Shown: positions 2,435-60,936 of the stretch, piece after piece
Layout: the number at the start of each line of letters is the position of its first letter
How positions within the stretch are numbered: the stretch's first letter is position 1
Assembly: GCA_965231125.1 (NCBI GenBank)
Contig: OZ246414.1
Coordinates: 209,739-273,738 of the forward strand
Length of the DNA stretch: 64,000 nt
Source of the DNA: an uncultured Gammaproteobacteria bacterium
Lineage (GTDB): Bacteria; Patescibacteriota; Microgenomatia; Woykebacterales; RBG-16-39-9b
Direction of reading: 5' to 3'
Program-made: the position numbers and the translations under genes
The notes under the pieces: model-generated
The model's database searches: none
Seen by the model: the letters and a program-made list of their open reading frames with translations, nothing else
Told to the model about the DNA's origin: nothing

Positions 2435-4521
2435 TGAATTTTGTTAGAGAACCGATTAATTTAAGAGATTACCGTCACCTAACTTCAATAGTCGTCGTGG
2501 CGTTTATTTTTGTTTCAGTCGTTGTTACAGTAAGTGGAGGTTTGAAACTTGAGGAGACAACTCGTAAACCAAAAGCAGCTAATCCATTAGAAACCATGAC
2601 CACCCCAGAAGGTACCGTTATAAACATTTATACAACCGGCGTGACGGCTGCGCAAATGTACAAATATTTGAAGGATAATGGCCTGGATTATGCAAGAGTT
2701 GGATCAGAAATGCGGGTAGACGTGGTTCCAACAGGTTTCACCACCGCGAGTGTTGGTTGCGGGTCTAGCGGCTCGACTTACGTTGCTAACCCCCCTGCAT
2801 TGCAGTTTAACATAAACGATATACTTTCTCACCCCAATTATTCTGTCGCCTACGAGTATTCTCACGCTTGGTTTACTTATTTTGCCTGTACTGCCTGGAA
2901 AGGTTCCTGGGACGAGTATCTTAAAGCCCGCAACCTCCTCGGTGATCCTCGACTTAATACGGATCTGTGTTGGACAGTTAATGACGGTCTGAGCGGCAGT
3001 GATTATGTAAAACTTTTTGCTCTGCCAGATCCTGGAGTTATTGTTGCCAAATGCCCCCCGGATATTCCGCTTGCCTCAGATGTGCCGGGTCTTAAAACTT
3101 TCTTAACCACAACCTGGAAGACCGGTTATAGTGGGACGGATACAGTTGCACCAACGGTCTCTATCAGACAACCGTCTAATAATGGTAATGTTTCTGGAAC
3201 TTCAGTCCAGATTTCTGCCAGTGCGGCGGATAATAATGGGGTTGCCTATGTTGAGTTTTATATCGATGGTGCTCTGAAACGGTTGGATGCTTACGGTTTC
3301 AATTTTGATTATACTTGGGACTCGACAAAAGTCGCTGACGGAGCACATGCAATCACTACCAAGGCCTATGACGCCGCTGGAAATACTGCATCGGCATCTA
3401 TTAATGTAAATGTTAATGGTTCAGGTGGGGATACCCAGGCACCCACTGTAACCATTACTTCTCCAGCGAACGGTGCTTCAGTTTCTGGGAATGTGAATGT
3501 AAATGCCAACGCTACGGATAATGTTGGGGTGACCAAAGTCGAGTTCTCTGTAGACGGGCTCTTGAGGGCTACTGATACAACCTCACCATACGGATTTACT
3601 TGGGATTCGACTACGGTTACAAATGGTACTCGCAATCTTTCTGCTAAAGCATTTGATGCGGCAGGTAATGTTGCTTCCGACACGATTTCTGTCACTGTGG
3701 CAAATGGTGACACCCAACCCCCATCAACACCCTCGGGTCTGACAGCTAGTGCAGCTAGTGCTACCTCAGTTAATCTCTCCTGGACCGCCAGTACAGATAA
3801 TGTTGGAGTCACTGGCTACTGGATTGTCAGGAATGGGGTCACGATTGCTTCTTCACTCACCAACAGTTACACTGATAATTCTGTTTCACCCGCAACCACC
3901 TACAACTACCAAGTAATCGCCTTTGATGCGGCTGGTAATACCTCTAGTACTTCTAACACCGCCACAGTGACTACCCCGGCTGCTCCGGATACTACACCAC
4001 CCTCCGCACCAACTAATCTAGTGGCCACGCCTGGTTCTTCTTCTCAGATTAACTTAAGCTGGACTGCCAGTACAGATAATGTAGGTGTGACTGGCTATGA
4101 TATTTACAGAAACAGTACTAAGATTGCCAAGGTGACTACAACAAGTTTTGGGGACACAGGACTGGCCGCCTCCACCACTTACAGTTACTTTGTCAAAGCA
4201 ATGGATGCGGTTGGTAATACCTCCAGCCCATCTAATACAGCTACTGCTACTACACTTAATCCTTCAATAAAAGGCAACATCACTGGAACCGTATTTAGCT
4301 CTGCTGGTGGGGTTGTAGCTGGGGCGAAACTTACTATATTTGTTTCTGGAAGCAAGAGAACATATTACACTTCTTCCTTTGGGATTTATTTTATCGACAG
4401 CATTCCCGTAGGTACTTACGATCTTCGGGTGTCAGCCCAGAGGTTTGCGCAGCAACAAGTGCAAGTTAGTGTGATAGCTAATACTACGACTACAAAAGAC
4501 ATCACTTTACAGAAAAGATAA
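2431..4521 (+). CDS. large cell-surface protein: TM anchor, novel N-terminal domain, 2 Ig-like plus 2 FN3 repeats, and a C-terminal carboxypeptidase-regulatory-like beta-sandwich
   Basis: ATGA overlap with the upstream gene. Ig-like repeats contain VEFxVDG...YGFxWDST...AxDAAGN. FN3 repeats contain LSWTASTDNVGVTGY. The C-terminal segment GTVxx..G..V.GA.L reads like CarboxypepD_reg. Confidence 0.8.
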   Translation: MMNFVREPINLRDYRHLTSIVVVAFIFVSVVVTVSGGLKLEETTRKPKAANPLETMTTPEGTVINIYTTGVTAAQMYKYLKDNGLDYARVGSEMRVDVVPTGFTTASVGCGSSGSTYVANPPALQFNINDILSHPNYSVAYEYSHAWFTYFACTAWKGSWDEYLKARNLLGDPRLNTDLCWTVNDGLSGSDYVKLFALPDPGVIVAKCPPDIPLASDVPGLKTFLTTTWKTGYSGTDTVAPTVSIRQPSNNGNVSGTSVQISASAADNNGVAYVEFYIDGALKRLDAYGFNFDYTWDSTKVADGAHAITTKAYDAAGNTASASINVNVNGSGGDTQAPTVTITSPANGASVSGNVNVNANATDNVGVTKVEFSVDGLLRATDTTSPYGFTWDSTTVTNGTRNLSAKAFDAAGNVASDTISVTVANGDTQPPSTPSGLTASAASATSVNLSWTASTDNVGVTGYWIVRNGVTIASSLTNSYTDNSVSPATTYNYQVIAFDAAGNTSSTSNTATVTTPAAPDTTPPSAPTNLVATPGSSSQINLSWTASTDNVGVTGYDIYRNSTKIAKVTTTSFGDTGLAASTTYSYFVKAMDAVGNTSSPSNTATATTLNPSIKGNITGTVFSSAGGVVAGAKLTIFVSGSKRTYYTSSFGIYFIDSIPVGTYDLRVSAQRFAQQQVQVSVIANTTTTKDITLQKR
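3142..3708 (+). repeat. intragenic tandem duplication encoding 2 Ig-like domains (about 96 aa each)
   Basis: Two consecutive units, 3142..3429 and 3430..3708, with a conserved protein pattern. Confidence 0.7.
3709..4254 (+). repeat. intragenic tandem duplication encoding 2 FN3-like domains (about 93 aa each)
   Basis: Units 3709..3987 and 3988..4254 share DTxPPSxPxxL...LSWTASTDNVGVTGY...AxDAxGNTSS. Confidence 0.7.
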
Positions 4522-18739: not shown

Positions 18740-18936
18740 AGTTTTTAAACCACCACCTCCCCGTTTCAAAAGTATAATTGTTAAAAAAGTTTGCGAAGGC
18801 CTTGCGAGAGTTGCGTTACTATCGAAATCGCTGTTTCGATAGCACTTCACTCTCTAAAAGTATTTGCGCAAAAGCCTTGTGTTCCGCTTCGCCGGACTAA
18901 AAGCTTTTGACCGCCTACCTACCTTTCTAAATTGTG

Positions 18937-18965
18937 TTGACAGCTTGGTTGCTATTTGGTATCAT
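18937..18965 (+). promoter_or_regulatory. sigma70-like promoter TTGACA-17-TATCAT upstream of fusA
   Basis: Lies inside the 374-nt rpsG-fusA intergenic region. Confidence 0.5.
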
Positions 18966-19113
18966 CCTCAAGTTCAACACCGAGCAGGTGTTTTTTCATG
19001 CGTAAAATAAGAACTTAGTCGGAATTTGCAAGAAAGTTTATTATCGCAAATTTCTCCCAAAACCCTGCCTTTTTCACTAGCGCGAAAAAGTAGTATAATT
19101 TAGGTTCAACATT

Positions 19114-22577: not shown

Positions 22578-22886
22578 ATGCCAAAAGGTCGCATTAGGGT
22601 ACGTTTAAAATCTTACGACGCAAGAGTTTTGGATGACTCAGCTGAGGATATTTTGGATACAGCAATTCGCACTGGTGCGAAAATTGCTGGGCCAATACCT
22701 TTGCCTACCGAACGTGAATCTTTTACGGTGACAACCTCACCGCATATTGATAAAGATGCTCGGGAACAATTTGAGATAAAGACTCATAAGAGACTGATAG
22801 ATATCATTGAACCAACCCCGAAGACTCTTGACGCTCTGATGCACCTGGAATTGCCCGCTGGAGTTGATATAGAGATTAAAATGTAA
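22578..22886 (+). CDS. rpsJ: 30S ribosomal protein S10
   Basis: S10 homology. Confidence 0.95.
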
Positions 22887-23000
22887 ATTTTAATCTCTGC
22901 GCAGAGCCTACCGAGATAAAGATTACATCTTTATCTCTGTGCCGACTATGAAATCAAAATGTAATTTTGATTTCTGCGAAGACTAAGAAATCAAATATTA
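22872..23000 (+). repeat. tandem array of three and a half ~37-41-nt units, each a perfect 25-nt AT-rich palindrome plus a TGYGMMGAC spacer
   Basis: Hairpins at 22872..22897, 22913..22937 and 22950..22974. Arm differences between copies are all compensatory. Confidence 0.8.
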
Positions 23001-23084
23001 TGAGCGGTATGTAGATCAATTTTAAATAACAAGAGCAATAAAAAAGATTTATGGACCGAAAGGTCTTTTTTGTTTTTTAAAGTT

Positions 23085-23900
23085 ATGGTAAAAGGTTTAA
23101 TTGCTAAAAAACTAAATATGGGTCAAGTTTTTGATTCACACGGCCGGGCAGTTCCGGTTACAAGGGTCTTAGTTGAGCCAAACTATATAATTCAGATTAA
23201 AACGGAAGATGCGGACGGTTATAAAGCTGTGCAACTAGGGTCTGGTGAAGCAAAGAGGGTCAGTAAGCCACTGGCCCAGCATATTAAGAAAGCAGGATTA
23301 ACAAATCTGCCACGGGTTTTTAAAGAATTTAGATTTGACGGTGATGTTAAGTTAGGTCAAGAGATTAAAGTGGATGAAGTTTTTCATAAAGGAGTTTTGG
23401 TAGACGCTATTGGAATTTCTAAAGGTAAAGGCTTTGCTGGGGTAGTCAAACGGTATGGTTTTGCTGGTGGTCCCAGAACCCACGGACAATCGGATAGAGA
23501 AAGAGCTCCAGGATCTATTGGAGCTACAACTACACCAGGAAGAGTCTATAAAGGGACAAAGATGGCCGGCCACATGGGGGCGGATAGAGTGAAGATGATG
23601 GGTTTAGAAATCGTAGATATAGACGAAGAAAAAAAGGTTTTGAGTATTAAAGGTTCAGTTCCAGGACCAACTGGGAGTTTAATAATTCTTGAAAAATCGG
23701 CAAAGAAAAAGAAGAAATATCATGAACCAGAGATTCCTCAGGTGCCCCATCTTGGTGGCTCGGAAGAGGAAAAATCTGAAGAAAGTAGCCAGGCGGGAGA
23801 GCCTAAAGAATCTTCGCCTGGGCAGCCCAGCGAAGTGGTAAATAAGGAGCAACCTAAACAGACGTCTGCCCAAGAAGTAAAGGAGGAAGCAAATGGCTAA
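23085..23900 (+). CDS. rplC: 50S ribosomal protein L3, with a ~70-aa Ser/Glu/Lys-rich C-terminal tail
   Basis: VKGLIAKKLNMGQVF... L3 homology. Start 23085 is preferred over TTG 23070. No SD is visible. Confidence 0.9.
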   Translation: MVKGLIAKKLNMGQVFDSHGRAVPVTRVLVEPNYIIQIKTEDADGYKAVQLGSGEAKRVSKPLAQHIKKAGLTNLPRVFKEFRFDGDVKLGQEIKVDEVFHKGVLVDAIGISKGKGFAGVVKRYGFAGGPRTHGQSDRERAPGSIGATTTPGRVYKGTKMAGHMGADRVKMMGLEIVDIDEEKKVLSIKGSVPGPTGSLIILEKSAKKKKKYHEPEIPQVPHLGGSEEEKSEESSQAGEPKESSPGQPSEVVNKEQPKQTSAQEVKEEANG

Positions 23901-34897: not shown

Positions 34898-35295
34898 TGG
34901 CAAAAAGTAAGCAGGAAGTGCATTCTAGAAAATTAAAAGAAAGAACCGACATTAACAAAGGCAAAGTTTTTGTGAGTGCCAGTTTTAATAATACTATCGT
35001 CACTATTACAGATAGTCGTGGTAATACTTTGGGTTGGAGTAGCGGTGGTAGCGTTGGTTTTAAAGGGGCTAGGAAATCTACTCCGTTTGCAGCCACAACT
35101 GCAATGGAAAGCTTAGTAAAAAAAGTGGTGGATAAGGGGCTAAAAGAGGTAGAAGTTTATGTTAAAGGTCCCGGCTCTGGACGAGACGCCGCCGTTAAAG
35201 CCTTAAAAGGTAGTGGTATTACAATCAAAGCTATCGCGGACGTTACACCAATTCCGCACAATGGACCAAGACCGAGAAAGAAGAGAAGAGTATAA
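34897..35295 (+). CDS. rpsK: 30S ribosomal protein S11
   Basis: S11 homology. Confidence 0.95.
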   Translation: MAKSKQEVHSRKLKERTDINKGKVFVSASFNNTIVTITDSRGNTLGWSSGGSVGFKGARKSTPFAATTAMESLVKKVVDKGLKEVEVYVKGPGSGRDAAVKALKGSGITIKAIADVTPIPHNGPRPRKKRRV

Positions 35296-35296
35296 A

Positions 35297-35926
35297 ATGG
35301 GAAGATATTTAGGACCAAAATTTAAATTAGATCGACGTGAAGGCACGAACCTTTTCTTAAAAGGGAAGAGGAGTTTGAGCTCTAAACACCCAATTGAGAA
35401 AAAGGGGGCAGTACTGCCCGGCCAGCATGGGCAATCAAGAAGAAGACGAAAAACCTCAGATTATGGTTTACAACTTCGTGAGAAACAAAAGGTCAAGAGA
35501 ATGTACGGTCTCTTTGAGAGACAATTTAAGAAATACTTCAAGCAAGCAGCGAGAGGAAAAGGGGATACAGGTTTTGCTCTTTTACAGAAGCTAGAGACGA
35601 GACTAGACAACGTTGTTTATCGGTTGGGGCTGGCTGCATCGCGATCTCAAGCCAGACAAATCGTTTCTCACGGCCATGTTTTGGTTAATGATAAAAAAGT
35701 GAATATTCCTTCTTTCGAGGTAAAAGTAGACAACATCATTTCTCTATCGGCGAAAGCACAGAAATTTAATTTGGTGAAAGAGTCTTTGGAGGCACAGGAT
35801 GCAGATTCATTACCAAAATGGTTGGAAAGAAAAGGTTTATCTGGTAAAGTGAACCGACTGCCAGAAAAAGAAGAAATCGTTCAAGATATAAACGATCAAT
35901 TAATTGTTGAGTTCTATAGTCGTTAG
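35297..35926 (+). CDS. rpsD: 30S ribosomal protein S4
   Basis: MGRYLGPKFKLDRREG; ATG at 35297 follows the rpsK stop. Confidence 0.94.
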   Translation: MGRYLGPKFKLDRREGTNLFLKGKRSLSSKHPIEKKGAVLPGQHGQSRRRRKTSDYGLQLREKQKVKRMYGLFERQFKKYFKQAARGKGDTGFALLQKLETRLDNVVYRLGLAASRSQARQIVSHGHVLVNDKKVNIPSFEVKVDNIISLSAKAQKFNLVKESLEAQDADSLPKWLERKGLSGKVNRLPEKEEIVQDINDQLIVEFYSR

Positions 35927-36043
35927 ACTTCAGGACTCGAAGAGTTCTACCGTCGTTAGGGATGGAAAGCCTAAGGCTCTCGTTCTAGATAATTGTTAAT
36001 TTATGATTTATATAACCACTAAGGTGGAGGAGGATATATTATT

Positions 36044-50248: not shown

Positions 50249-51280
50249 ATGGATACTAAAAAGTTAGAGGCGATAAAAGCCGCCATGGGAGAGATCGAAA
50301 AACAGTTTGGTAAAGGTTCTATTATGCAGCTAGGGGAGGCAGCGGCTAAAATGGATATCTCCGCGATTCCCACCGGGGCGTTAGGGCTGGATCTTGCTTT
50401 AGGAATTGGTGGTCTTCCCCGGGGAAGAGTTGTGGAAATTTTTGGCCCCGAAGGCGGCGGAAAAACTACTCTTGCTCTTCACGTAATTGCTGAGGCTCAG
50501 AAAAAAGGCGGCGCAGCTGCTTTCGTTGATGCTGAACATGCGCTGGACCCGTCCCGTGCGGAAAAAATCGGCGTCAACATTAAAGACCTTTTAGTTTCTC
50601 AACCGGACACCGGCGAACAAGCGCTAGAAATTGTTGAGACTTTAGTGCGAAGTGGAGCAATTGACGTTGTAGTTGTGGATTCCGTCGCCGCTCTGGTTCC
50701 CCGCGCCGAAGTGGAGGGGGAGATGGGCGATGCCTTTGTTGGAATTCAAGCAAGACTCATGAGTCAGGCAATGCGAAAGCTTGCCTCCGCAATTTCCAAA
50801 TCCAGAACCCTCGCGATTTTTATAAACCAACTTCGAGAAAAAGTTGGTATTATGTTTGGTAACCCGGAAGTGACTCCGGGTGGGCGGGCCTTGAAATTTT
50901 ACTCTTCGGTGCGCATCGACATCCGCAGAATAGAATCTATCACCGACGGCCCAAATGCAATTGGGAACCGGGTCAAGGCAAAAATTGTTAAAAATAAAGT
51001 GGCGCCGCCTTTCCGGGTAGCTGAGTTTGACATAATGTTCGACCGCGGAATTTCTCGAGAAGGGTCCATTGTGGACGCTGCCATTGAGACCGGTGTGGTT
51101 AAAAAAACCGGTGGGTGGTTTTCCTACGCTGGTCAAAACATCGCCCAAGGTAGAGAAGCCGCTAAATCCTACCTCGAAGAGCACGCTAAAGTAGCCGCCG
51201 AAATTGAGAAAAAGGTAAAAGAGGTTTACGCAAAAGGAGTCCCAACAACGCCTCCTAAAGAAGAGTCTGAAGAAGATTAA
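50249..51280 (+). CDS. recA: recombinase RecA
   Basis: GPEGGGKTT Walker A, L1/L2 loop conservation. Confidence 0.97.
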
Positions 51281-52668: not shown

Positions 52669-54156
52669 ATGGATCCAGCTTTAATTGCAATGGGAGCCCT
52701 AGTAGTTGGGGCTTTCGTAGGCTTCGCCTATCAAAACTTTGTTAAGTCAAAACTTCCCCAAAAATCTTCTGGAGAAAAACCGTCTGAAGGGACCTCAAAC
52801 GCCCGCGAACTAATCATCGAAGCCAAAGATGAAGCTTACAAAATTAAACGTGAGGCCGAAGAAGAGGCGCGAAAGGTCCGTGAAGAGGTAATAAAATTGG
52901 AAGCTAGAGTCGCCTCAAGAGAAGAGACCATCGAGAAAAAACTTTCCGAGATTGAAACCAAAGAGGCATCTCTGGCGAAGAGAAATGATGAATCCGAAAA
53001 AATTCGAGCTGAACTCGTAACTAAATTAGAAAAAGTTGCTGGTGTTACTAGAGACGAAGCGAAAAAACTAATTGTTGATGCTACTGAATCGCATTTGAAA
53101 GAAGAAGTTGCTCGAAGGATCCGTGAAGCCGAGGAACAAGTTAAAAAGGAAGCCGATGAAAAAGCAAAAAATATTTTGGTAGACGCGATGAAGCATGGTG
53201 CTACCGATTATGTTGCAGAATACACCACCTCCACAGTTAAACTTCCCGATGACGAAATGAAAGGGCGAATTATTGGCAAAGAAGGCCGCAATATAAAGGC
53301 TTTTGAGATAGCCACTGGGGTTGATGTAGATCTTGATGATCCCGGAATTGCCCGACTTTCATCTTTCGACGGGGAGCGGCGTGAAGTCGCCAAGATTTCT
53401 CTTGAGCGGCTAATGGCCGATGGTAGAATCCAGCCAACAAGAATTGAAGAAATTGTCGACCGCGTCAAAAAAGAATTCGAAAAAATCCGCCGCGAAGAAG
53501 GAGAAAAGCTTGCCAACGAGGTGGGCGCTCCGAACCTACCCTTGGAGATACTAGAAACTTTAGGAAGATTCAAGTGGCGCTTTTCTTACGGACAGAACCT
53601 TTGGCTGCACACTTTGGAAGAGACCAAGATTGGTATGGCGATAGCTCGTGAAGTTGGCGCCGACTTGAACATAGTTCGGCTTGGGTGTCTCTTTCACGAT
53701 ATTGGTAAAGTGTTTACCCCAGAGCAGGAAGGTACTCACGTGCAAGTTGGCGCCGACTTTTTAAGAAAATTTAAGATGGACCCGAAAGTAATTGCCTGCG
53801 TTGAGGAACACCATGAAGATAAACCTTTTTCAGCAGTAGAATCTGTTATTGTCTGGATTTCCGATGCAATTTCTGGTTCCCGACCCGGCGCCAGACACGA
53901 AGCAGTTGAGGATTATATAAAACGAGTAACCGAAATTGAAAATGTTGCCAGTTCCTTCCGCGGGGTTGAGAAATCCTTTGCAATCGCAGCTGGCCGGGAA
54001 GTACGGGTAATTGTAATACCGGAGCAAGTTAGCGATGCCGACCTAACAAAACTAGCGCATGACGTTGCGGATAAAATCCATGATTCAATTACATACCCAG
54101 GACAGGTGAAAGTCACAGTAGTTAGGGAAACACGGGCGGAATCCGTCGCTAGATGA
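52669..54156 (+). CDS. rny: ribonuclease Y
   Basis: N-terminal TM, coiled coil, KH domain, HD domain (LFHDIGK). Confidence 0.95.
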   Translation: MDPALIAMGALVVGAFVGFAYQNFVKSKLPQKSSGEKPSEGTSNARELIIEAKDEAYKIKREAEEEARKVREEVIKLEARVASREETIEKKLSEIETKEASLAKRNDESEKIRAELVTKLEKVAGVTRDEAKKLIVDATESHLKEEVARRIREAEEQVKKEADEKAKNILVDAMKHGATDYVAEYTTSTVKLPDDEMKGRIIGKEGRNIKAFEIATGVDVDLDDPGIARLSSFDGERREVAKISLERLMADGRIQPTRIEEIVDRVKKEFEKIRREEGEKLANEVGAPNLPLEILETLGRFKWRFSYGQNLWLHTLEETKIGMAIAREVGADLNIVRLGCLFHDIGKVFTPEQEGTHVQVGADFLRKFKMDPKVIACVEEHHEDKPFSAVESVIVWISDAISGSRPGARHEAVEDYIKRVTEIENVASSFRGVEKSFAIAAGREVRVIVIPEQVSDADLTKLAHDVADKIHDSITYPGQVKVTVVRETRAESVAR

Positions 54157-54323
54157 TGTATTTAGTATTTGGTATATAATATCTGGTATAGAAAAACAGG
54201 AACTATAAAGCCACATACTAAATACAAAACACACAATACAAAATACAATGCGAATTCTTAGCCCACGAAGCCCGCTTTGCGGGGCGAGTGGTCGCAAGAT
54301 TTTCGACACTGATTTAGTTTAGA

Positions 54324-59988: not shown

Positions 59989-60936
59989 ATGAAAAAACTT
60001 TTGGCCGTTGTTGGGCCGACGGCAACTGGTAAAACAGATTTAGCGATTTCTCTTGCGAAAAAATTTAACGGCGAAATTGTCTCCGCGGATTCACGGCAGA
60101 TTTACAAAGGGATGGATATTGGGACCGGGAAGGAATTAAGTCAAAAGTCAAAAGTCAAAAGTCAAAAATTCGAAAAACACAAAGGATATTGGGTTGTTGA
60201 GGGGATACCAATTTATCTTTATGATGTTATCAATCCAGACGAGAGTTTTTCAGTGGCGGAGTACCAACAGCTTGCTTACGAAAAAATTGCAAAGATTCAC
60301 GAAAAAGAAAAATTGCCAATATTAGTTGGTGGGACCGGTTTGTACACAAGATCTGTACTACAAGGTTTGAAGATACCTCAAGTTGCGCCGGATAATAATT
60401 TAAGAAAAAAATTAGAAAAAAAACCACTCGGAATCCTTCTTAAAGAGTTGGAAGAGGTGGACTATAAAGCTTATCAAAAAATTGATAAATCCAACCCTCG
60501 TCGAGTTATACGAGCGCTTGAAGTTTATTTAAAAACAGGTAGAACTATATCGGAACTCGCAGCAAAATTTAAGCCGAACTTTGAAAGTCTTGTGGTTGGC
60601 CTTTCGGCCCCGCGCGAAGTTTTATATGAAAAAGCGGATAAAAGAGTGGAACTTTGGTTTAAAACAGGTTTTGTCGATGAGGTACGAGAGCTTTTGAAAA
60701 AGTATTCCTCGGATTTACCATCGATAAACTCTTTGGGTTATCGGCAGGCAGTTTCGTACCTCCAAAACAAAATTTCACTCCCGGAGGCTATCCAAAGAAC
60801 AAAATTTGATCATCACGGTTACATCCGCCGGCAACTGACTTGGTTTAGAAAAGAGAGGGTTGAATGGTTTGATGTCGGCCGTCCAGGATTCGAAAAAGAA
60901 ATTTACAGAAAAGTGCGGGAATGGATTAAAGACTAA
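59989..60936 (+). CDS. miaA: tRNA dimethylallyltransferase
   Basis: P-loop GPTATGKT. ATG 59989 is preferred over the track start 59917. Contains a (GTCAAAA)4 repeat. Confidence 0.9.
   Translation: MKKLLAVVGPTATGKTDLAISLAKKFNGEIVSADSRQIYKGMDIGTGKELSQKSKVKSQKFEKHKGYWVVEGIPIYLYDVINPDESFSVAEYQQLAYEKIAKIHEKEKLPILVGGTGLYTRSVLQGLKIPQVAPDNNLRKKLEKKPLGILLKELEEVDYKAYQKIDKSNPRRVIRALEVYLKTGRTISELAAKFKPNFESLVVGLSAPREVLYEKADKRVELWFKTGFVDEVRELLKKYSSDLPSINSLGYRQAVSYLQNKISLPEAIQRTKFDHHGYIRRQLTWFRKERVEWFDVGRPGFEKEIYRKVREWIKD
60140..60167 (+). repeat. heptanucleotide tandem repeat (GTCAAAA)x4 inside the miaA CDS
   Basis: Perfect 4 copies, encoding KSKVKSQK. Confidence 0.85.

Follow-up and report, generated by a model that had tools for sequence, protein, structure and literature searches.

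Tandem stem-loops duplicated from the 3' end of rpsJ in the rpsJ–rplC gap of an uncultivated Patescibacteria member

The 64-kb stretch of DNA analysed here (the window) originates from an uncultivated member of the Patescibacteria (Microgenomates) and covers its str/S10/spc ribosomal-protein region, comprising rpoB, rpoC, rpsL, rpsG, fusA, tuf, rpsJ, rplC and onward. Between rpsJ and rplC, which code for the ribosomal proteins S10 and L3, three perfect stem-loops (H1–H3) and a decayed fourth unit follow one another in tandem. The array consists of tandem duplicates of the rpsJ 3' end, each with a reverse-complement arm; the units are identified as such because their 5' arm and loop read GAR-ATH-AAR-ATG-TRR, i.e., E-I-K-M-stop, the C-terminus of S10, and because the covarying stem positions are codon third positions. 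We regard the origin by duplication, taken by itself, as very probable, and some function of the hairpins at the RNA level as somewhat better than an even bet; for origin and function jointly, the chances appear evenly balanced. By analogy with characterized systems, the most likely role would be that of an mRNA decay barrier or insulator.

Direct reading of the sequence confirmed the tandem hairpin units which a first-pass annotation had placed between the two genes at 22872–23084 (all features are on the + strand unless stated otherwise). H1 (22871–22898) has a perfect 12-bp stem within 28 nt, AGAGATTAAAAT-GTAA-ATTTTAATCTCT in DNA and AGAGAUUAAAAU-GUAA-AUUUUAAUCUCU in RNA, with a folding energy of −12.5 to −13.1 kcal/mol, depending on the flanks folded with it, a pair probability of 0.998, and a score of 47.9 bits against a covariance model built from 11 units. 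Its 5' arm and loop are the last four rpsJ codons, GAG ATT AAA ATG, and the TAA stop (22884–22886); the stop codon, with which the first hairpin had been claimed to overlap, indeed sits in the loop. Spacer 1 (TGCGCAGAGCCTAC, 22899–22912, with C at 22912) is of type 'a' and resembles the spacers TGCGCCATAGGCTAC in L086 and TGCGCAAAAGACGGCTAC in L087 (the rpsJ–rplC loci of relatives are labelled L plus a number). H2 (22913–22937; GAGATAAAGAT-TAC-ATCTTTATCTC, in RNA GAGAUAAAGAU-UAC-AUCUUUAUCUC) has a perfect 11-bp stem of −12.2 to −12.7 kcal/mol, again by folded flanks, and scores 39.4 bits; it is followed by spacer 2 (TGTGCCGACTAT, 22938–22949). H3 (22950–22974; GAAATCAAAAT-GTA-ATTTTGATTTC, in RNA GAAAUCAAAAU-GUA-AUUUUGAUUUC), likewise with a perfect 11-bp stem, reaches −8.9 kcal/mol with flanks and −7.7 kcal/mol as a bare 25-nt hairpin, at a score of 46.4 bits. 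Behind spacer 3 (TGCGAAGACTAA, 22975–22986), the unit 4 remnant (22987–22999; GAAATCAAATATT, the partial unit also being given as GAAATCAAATA) has kept its 5' arm and lost its 3' arm.

The units start 41 nt apart (40 nt in an alternative repeat register) and then 37 nt apart, in agreement with the three and a half units of about 37–41 nt described before. Two other descriptions held for part of the array: the term "perfect 25-nt palindrome" suits H2 and H3 but not H1, whose 11-bp core spans 26 nt and whose full stem of 12 bp spans 28 nt, and the spacer consensus TGYGMMGAC is found behind H2 and H3, whereas the spacer of H1 (TGCGCAGAG) ends in GAG and not in GAC. H1–H3 are the sole perfect hairpins of at least 11 bp in the 64 kb, as compared to about 0.1 in shuffled windows, and the folding of the rpsJ–rplC gap yields z = −5.2 against dinucleotide shuffles. 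Two independent assemblies, Logan SRR6155504 and JGI 3300010391, agree letter for letter at the array locus, which therefore is not an assembly artefact.

As to the coding content of the units, H1 is the actual gene end, GAG ATT AAA ATG TAA. H3 reads GAA ATC AAA ATG TAA and thus again E-I-K-M-stop, and H2 reads GAG ATA AAG AT, followed by an altered loop. The spacer ends GAC TAT (spacer 2) and GAC TAA, taken in the frame of the unit, resemble the rpsJ codons GAT ATA (D-I) in front of EIKM. All 20 units from eight genomes spell E-I-K-M-stop or a near variant. In the 14 hairpin-forming units the 5' arm is variable only at positions 3, 6 and 9 of 11, which are codon third positions and correspond to the covarying alignment columns 6-27, 9-24 and 12-21; by our own calculation, three variable sites out of eleven would all coincide with the third positions with a chance of 1/165. 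A copy of the last four rpsJ codons downstream of the gene occurs at 13 of 175 S10 loci, compared with 4.7 expected. Eight of these loci belong to the clade described below, to which such copies are essentially limited; among the other five the copy is exact in L050 only.

L050, from a Levyibacteriota metagenome-assembled genome (MAG), carries in its 531-nt gap a 16-nt exact copy of the rpsJ end (TGAAATTAGGATGTAG; 2810–3110) about 280 nt past the stop, flanking an insert; the arrangement resembles that of an element inserted into the rpsJ end between long direct repeats. Translation of the downstream units of the window, by read-through or as a small open reading frame (ORF), was considered and rejected: H2 is out of the rpsJ frame, and H3 is in frame but TAA at 22917–22919 intervenes. 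The stop codons in the loops were likewise dismissed as a sign of coding selection; the loops contain TAA, TAG or TGA and never TGG, and single transitions of TAA yield stops only.

From the complementarity of all differences between copies, the first-pass annotation had concluded that the stem has been under selection. The observation itself stands, as the stem differences are all complementary (between H2 and H3, stems and spacers have diverged to a similar extent, at 6 of 22 and 4 of 12 positions, and each stem change has its complement) and pairing is kept in 8 of 10 genomes of the clade. Independent compensation in each copy did not hold up: the changes are rpsJ third positions, and template switching is possible. 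Covariation between copies mostly reflects synonymous plus compensatory change in the coding copy, with subsequent duplication of the whole hairpin.

Comparison of the orthologous coding hairpins showed that the 3' arm follows the Ile codon (ATT with AAT, ATA with TAT, ATC with GAT, and U·G in L084) and also the third position of the Lys codon; the pairs seen at stem position 6 are U-A, A-U, C-G and U·G. The 14 folded units contain 137 Watson-Crick, 8 G·U, 2 A·C and 1 other pair. In an alignment of the units, double-change cells amounted to 11, as against 4.8±1.4 in shuffles (0 of 500 reached 11), the covariation score was 0.251 vs 0.133, and in slid registers pairing fell to 36–55%; the pair counts from this alignment are conservative, as two of its rows are shifted by one. 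That G·U pairs outnumber A·C pairs suggests a constraint on the + strand RNA, 8 versus 2 being a modest difference.

Template switching in replication can create perfect stems, multi-base "compensatory" changes and loop inversions (Mönttinen and Löytynoja 2022, PMC8794818), and all three features of such products, including the perfect reverse-complement copy, are present here. The 3' arms are exact reverse complements of rpsJ codons, and H2, whose stem is that of the L086 coding hairpin, combines this unchanged stem with the inverted loop TAC, the reverse complement of the usual GTA; we used the criteria of PMC8794818, and the event was not reconstructed on the tree. The mechanism was described there for rRNA and microRNA genes, whereas in the rpsJ–rplC gap the template is a protein-coding 3' end and the product is tandemly amplified.

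An entirely neutral history is one alternative: a template switch made the inverted repeat, slippage or unequal recombination duplicated it, and the units are functionless and decaying, with occasional repair by template switching. The inverted loop of H2 is the footprint of an event at the DNA level, copying of the coding unit accounts for all variation between copies, and the copy number of 0–4 with complete loss in two clade members (L085 and L172), as well as the gradient of decay along the arrays, speak for it too. Neutrality is, however, at odds with the behaviour of the coding hairpin, whose 3' arm tracks synonymous changes where other intergenic sequence no longer aligns, with the bias of non-canonical pairs to G·U on the mRNA strand (8 to 2), and with H2 and H3 being without unpaired change though their spacers differ at 4 of 12 positions. 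A further point against it is that hairpins occur at the rpsJ stop of other Patescibacteria, also where the sequence is unrelated: a significant local fold was found there in 22 of 72, as compared to 3.6 expected. Taking both sides together, we consider a purely neutral by-product rather unlikely. Selection and repair by template switching probably both contribute to the perfect pairing.

Textbook-like covariation between repeat copies can thus be inherited from a coding template, which calls for caution when motif hunters use paralogous repeats as evidence of RNA structure. The locus is a clear case from nature of a gene whose own final codons gave rise to a hairpin, which was amplified and maintained and has a loop inversion that fits template switching.

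Among 71 genes of the window, the structure at the rpsJ stop codon ranks first. The second strongest belongs to rpsD (S4; 35213–35926, PF00163/PF01479), which ends in a stop-spanning hairpin before rpoA (35909–35950; GAGUUCU-AU-AGUC-GUUA-GACU-UC-AGGACUC, z = −4.0).

Closer relatives were gathered via L3 homologues and contig look-ups. In a tree of tuf+S10+L3 protein, the window and eight relatives form one clade with 82–87% identity; L193 is outside the tree and was placed in the clade by 94% identity of its S10 to that of the window and by the same modules in the gap. A hairpin at the rpsJ stop is present in 8 of 10 genomes of this Woykebacteria-related clade, across about 15% divergence of tuf+S10+L3 protein, with orthologues of H1 in L083, L084, L086, L087, L169, L177 and L193. 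Copy number varies: like the window, L193 has three units (folded in the window) and a remnant, L086 two perfect and two decayed units, L087 two units and a 7-bp hairpin, L083 and L084 one unit and a remnant each, and L169 and L177 a single unit. Among the outgroups, an rpsJ-end hairpin was not found in L178, L003 and L176, and L004 has a weak version of 6–7 bp. The array was not found in either of the nearest species representatives, a Woykebacteria MAG (S10 92% identical) and a Woesebacteria MAG (S10 87%). A metagenome scan with the clade-specific S10 N-terminus as query yielded no close relatives, the best among the matches listed being 75% identical.

Outside this position the units were absent from the sequences searched. 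A covariance search of the whole window with filters off returned H1–H3 only, the next match scoring 11.8 bits, and no further copy exists in the 64 kb at up to 3 mismatches. In about 189 kb of relatives' loci, all covariance matches are located at the rpsJ 3' end or in the following gap. A pattern scan of viral contigs gave 12 matches, all of them single, in unrelated AT-rich coding sequence and mostly imperfect palindromes. Rfam identified only tRNA-Pro in the window, nothing credible in 22780–23180 at E-values up to 10 (where permissive E-values brought spurious miRNA and snoRNA matches only), and nothing in the loci of 20 relatives. The array is locus-specific, and neither a dispersed repeat nor a known RNA family. 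Absence from all relatives, or spread of the palindrome over the genome, which had been named as refuting outcomes, was not observed: units occur in relatives, and copies elsewhere were not found in the sequences searched.

These results bear on the earlier suggestion of a REP-like or mobile palindrome. Repetitive extragenic palindromic (REP) sequences and bacterial interspersed mosaic elements (BIME), including REP doublets forming hairpins (REPIN), of Enterobacteria and Pseudomonas share with the array that they are extragenic palindromes of 20–40 bp, often in tandem, after genes in operons. They can stabilise the upstream segment of an mRNA, malE-malF being the classical case. REPs are high-copy, dispersed, GC-rich imperfect palindromes mobilised by REP-associated tyrosine transposases (RAYTs), whereas the array occupies one locus per genome and has AU-rich perfect stems derived from the last codons of the adjacent gene. 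The GTAG or CGTC tetranucleotide at one end of the REP palindrome (PMC3733652; see also PMC3337134) is missing, as the units start with GAGA or GAAA and end with CTC-TGCG, and no Y1 transposase was detected among the 15 of about 70 window ORFs scanned against Pfam. From miniature inverted-repeat transposable elements (MITEs) the array differs in its single locus and in units which abut in tandem with homologous spacers.

A mobile palindrome, or a DNA target site of a recombinase or transposase, would account for extragenic 25-nt palindromes in tandem at the 3' end of a gene, and the 16-nt direct repeat of the rpsJ end around the ~280-nt insert of L050 suggests that this gene end is open to insertions. 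The lack of any other copy in 64 kb, the restriction of relatives' matches to the rpsJ 3' end and gap, the unrelated nature of the viral matches, and the absence of the tag of PMC3733652, of terminal inverted repeats and of target duplications around the units all argue against it, as does the combination of covarying sequence with constant pairing, which speaks against a sequence-specific DNA-binding protein. With no other copy in the window or in the flanks of relatives, we consider this explanation extremely improbable. The earlier statement that the array is not CRISPR-like was correct: the spacers have 12–14 nt and are mutually related, instead of being unique and at least about 25 nt long, and the neighbouring genes are tuf, rpsJ, rplC and rplD.

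According to the origin we favour, the last ~11 nt of rpsJ (GAR AUH AAR AU) would have gained, in the ancestor of the clade, a reverse-complement copy just past the stop, resulting in a stem-loop with the stop codon in its loop. This unit of 37–41 nt, made up of the last rpsJ codons, the stop, the 3' arm and a TGCG...CTAN spacer, would then have been duplicated in tandem one to three times, such that each downstream unit may be seen as a retired rpsJ 3' end, with proximal units intact and distal ones decaying. Perfect pairing would be kept by purifying selection on the RNA helix together with template-switch events, of which the inverted loop of H2 may be a footprint. Unit stabilities along the arrays, in kcal/mol and from the gene outward, are −13.1, −12.7, −8.9 and −0.3 in the window, −14.0, −10.4 and −1.2 in L086, −15.7, −7.9, −10.1 and 0 in L193, −9.6 and −1.5 in L083, and −10.4 and −0.6 in L084; the falling stability fits birth of units beside the gene and distal decay. 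Unequal recombination is available to the organism, as RecA is encoded in the window. The stem of H2 equals that of unit 1 of L086, and the stem of H3 equals that of unit 2, which fits either an extra proximal duplication in the lineage of the window or convergence.

A more far-reaching scenario pictures the array as a "conveyor belt" of retired rpsJ 3' ends in ongoing genetic exchange with the coding copy. New units would arise at the end of the gene, through template switching or slippage, and shift distally with age, unequal recombination or gene conversion would sometimes return a non-coding unit into rpsJ, and the non-coding copies would thereby be held indirectly to coding competence for E-I-K-M-stop, while selection would retain them as RNA decay barriers tunable by copy number. 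If true, a coding terminus and the non-coding copies derived from it would evolve in concert, which is unusual, and the units would preserve earlier synonymous states of a universal ribosomal-protein gene in legible form. We put it forward as a speculation and consider it improbable.

The functional reading starts from the position of the hairpins. Searching the rpsJ–rplC gap for promoters revealed none on the + strand, the only hit being a weak 9/12 match on the − strand (23026–22997). The hairpins therefore lie inside a tuf–rpsJ–rplC transcript, and read-through from tuf-rpsJ is the simplest route of rplC expression. Their position between cistrons, with tuf-rpsJ upstream, would fit mRNA-stabilising stem-loops. 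We propose that they act in cis on the + strand mRNA as intercistronic or 3'-UTR (untranslated region) stem-loops separating the tuf-rpsJ segment from the segment starting with rplC, that they would block exonucleolytic decay, and that they might position, guide or limit endonucleolytic processing, possibly that by RNase Y. In this way they could insulate the tuf-rpsJ message, ending at or read through the terminator-like element at 23053–23078 described below, from the downstream S10-operon message. Each ribosome terminating on rpsJ would melt H1, the 3' arm of which lies within ~14 nt of the stop; H2 and H3 would remain outside the footprint of the terminating ribosome, which might be a rationale for the extra copies. 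A role of the hairpins as RNase III substrate was rejected, stems of 11–12 bp being judged too short.

RNase Y is the endonuclease that initiates processing of operon mRNAs in decay of the Gram-positive type. The window encodes RNase Y (52669–54156; PF12072 with KH and HD domains) as well as RecA (50249–51280), two proteins that matter for the processing of mRNA and for recombination between repeats in the organism. The favoured functional analogy is the puf operon of Rhodobacter capsulatus, for which Chen, Beatty, Cohen and Belasco reportedly described, in 1988, intercistronic stem-loops between pufA and pufL as an "mRNA decay terminator". As in the array, the stem-loops are situated between cistrons of one transcript; they give the upstream and downstream segments unequal stability, as is proposed for the array. 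The puf hairpins differ in that their function was demonstrated experimentally, that of the array being inferred, and in that they are GC-rich and neither tandem duplicates nor derived from coding sequence. Classified by architecture, the array is an intercistronic stem-loop array, unusually built and amplified from the last codons of the neighbouring gene. Gene regulation in the Patescibacteria (candidate phyla radiation, CPR) is, to our knowledge, almost unknown; should the hairpins turn out to block decay or guide processing, this group would gain some of its first described cis-acting mRNA elements.

Several findings weigh against this combined view of origin and function. The functional part draws on position and analogy only. 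Copy number ranges from 0 to 4, distal units decay, and the clade members L085 and L172 are without any hairpin unit, which amounts to loss on two occasions; any function must therefore be dispensable or dose-tolerant. The stems are short (11–12 bp) and AU-rich (−9 to −13 kcal/mol) and would hinder decay less than the classical GC-rich stabilisers do. Perfect stems could persist through template switching alone, in the absence of selection (PMC8794818), and the identity of stems between the window and L086 could be convergence, since only 12 synonymous states exist. Finally, the 3' arm of H3 (22964–22975) can pair with the 5' arm of unit 4, and at predicted equilibrium H3 has P = 0.03 as compared to P = 0.97 for this alternative helix (region 22961–23002; −9.2 kcal/mol for 22962–23002 alone and −10.8 kcal/mol within 22947–23004). 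The alternative helix could be an incidental result of neighbouring similar palindromes or a structural toggle; in co-transcriptional folding, H3 would form first.

Downstream of the array, the gap contains a conserved module. A single-stranded box (AAGAGCAAT / AACAAGAGCAAT, core AGAGCA; 23028–23039) is located 13 nt upstream of a terminator hairpin and is clade-conserved, with a comparable box at the same relative position in 9 of 10 clade genomes and a diverged one in L083. The element at 23053–23078, GGACC-GAAA-GGUCU followed by U6GU6, has a pair probability of 0.95, ends 6 nt before the rplC ATG, and with its GC-rich stem and U tract corresponds to the definition of an intrinsic terminator. 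Across the clade it takes the form GGACC-GNRA-GGUCY plus U tract, the stem being conserved and the loop occurring in GNRA variants. L085 and L172 keep box and terminator without an rpsJ-end hairpin; in L172 the module directly follows rpsJ, 176 nt before rplC. The hairpin array is hence a separate module between the stop codon and the conserved box and terminator. The terminator may serve as an attenuator or mark where the tuf-rpsJ transcript ends, and it, and not the hairpins, is likely the control point (dosage or attenuation) for rplC and the genes behind.

A transcriptional role of the hairpins themselves, as terminators, pause sites or a structure blocking Rho loading on the long untranslated gap, would agree with their position at a cistron end in an untranslated stretch of about 200 nt, and it is established that structure in untranslated RNA hinders Rho loading. 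By the definition of an intrinsic terminator, however, H1–H3 do not qualify: their stems are AU-rich, and the bases directly behind them, CUGCGC, CUGUGC and CUGCGA, form no U tract. A proper terminator is, moreover, present downstream. This role thus appears quite improbable.

The first-pass annotation had also suggested autoregulation by a ribosomal protein, in which binding of S10, L4 or L3 to the hairpins would control translation or attenuation of the S10 operon. The location in a ribosomal-protein operon, just upstream of the conserved terminator before rplC, is suggestive, and it is established knowledge that L4 of E. coli controls the attenuator of the S10 leader; such leaders are listed in PMC3616713. 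The E. coli leader resembles the element at 23053–23078 in being an intrinsic terminator just upstream of the first controlled cistron, but it precedes rpsJ, whereas the terminator of the array locus follows rpsJ and gives no covariance-model match. Similarly, the L4-Archaeoglobi candidate leader (Eckert and Weinberg 2020, PMC7247131) is structured and located directly upstream of rplC-rplD-rplW-rplB, but it is an archaeal motif contained in Rfam, and the array locus does not match it.

For the hairpins as the regulatory site, the lack of a match to any Rfam leader family is unfavourable, as are their variable copy number, a stem sequence that is set by rpsJ codons rather than by mimicry of rRNA, and the ~80 nt of non-conserved sequence between hairpins and terminator. 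They are absent from L085, L172 and the outgroups L003, L176 and L178, yet all five keep a GC-rich hairpin in the gap; among these, the AGAGCA box and U tract are found in L085 and L172 only, i.e., in the two clade members which retain box and terminator without the hairpins. The suggestion did not withstand these comparisons, and autoregulation through the hairpins is very unlikely. Two further candidates were rejected: TTGCTCTTG resembles boxA (NusB/S10), but only on the non-transcribed (−) strand of the AAGAGCAA box, and antiterminator pairing of the hairpins with the terminator finds no GGUCC-complementary segment upstream.

A terminator-like hairpin with U tract within 70 nt of rplC was detected in 40 of 61 rpsJ–rplC gaps of Patescibacteria, as compared to 0.1 in shuffled sequences. 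Its occurrence directly before rplC in about two thirds of the sampled Patescibacteria suggests an uncharacterised S10-operon attenuator in the radiation. In the loci L004–L077, terminator-like elements 5–40 nt before rplC comprise at least two sequence-conserved leader types, neither of which is in Rfam: a "Levy-type" leader, ATGCCCAAAC...AAGCCTA...GRTAGCC-loop-GGCTATC-U8, the terminator stem of which is invariant in 11 genomes, and a "Gottesman-type" leader, GAGATACTYTGGTATACT...CCAAAAGTCTCGGATGAG...CGACCTCAACCGAGGTCG-U7. Both are candidate S10-operon attenuators in CPR bacteria, possibly responding to L4. In L171–L175, which have the same L3 protein and gaps of 223–226 nt, the region ~60–100 nt past the rpsJ stop differs mostly in T/A run lengths just after the terminator and in few substitutions, and the L171 scaffold has an N-run there; this has the appearance of slippage in homopolymers, or of a weak spot of the assembly, at the U tract.

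The genes flanking the array were assigned by ORF analysis. The rpsJ coding sequence (22578–22886) was read directly and carries PF00338, detected by Pfam on an identical gene. That of rplC (23085–23900; PF00297) starts at ATG 23085 and not at TTG 23070, as judged from the N-termini of relatives (MVKGLIGKK...). The length of 198 nt given before for the S10-L3 gap is correct with this start, as in relatives; the qualification "unusually long" is not, 100–250 nt being normal in the lineage. The L3 proteins of the clade end in an additional K-, E-, S- and P-rich segment of about 65 residues (…KKKKKYHEPEIPQVPHLGGSEEEKSEESSQAGEPKESS…; window 23700–23900) which is absent from typical bacterial L3.

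Elsewhere in the window, the 374-nt rpsG–fusA gap (18740–19113) contains a perfect 9-bp hairpin at 18819–18842 and a consensus promoter, TTGACA-17-TATCAT with TG (18937–18965), which is followed after about 10 nt by the terminator-like sequence AACACC-GAGCA-GGUGUU-UUUUC (18976–18992); promoter and terminator may constitute a short attenuated leader before fusA. Tandem repeats of the heptamers AAGTCAA and ATACAAA, each of about five copies, are present at 60138–60176 and 54215–54248.

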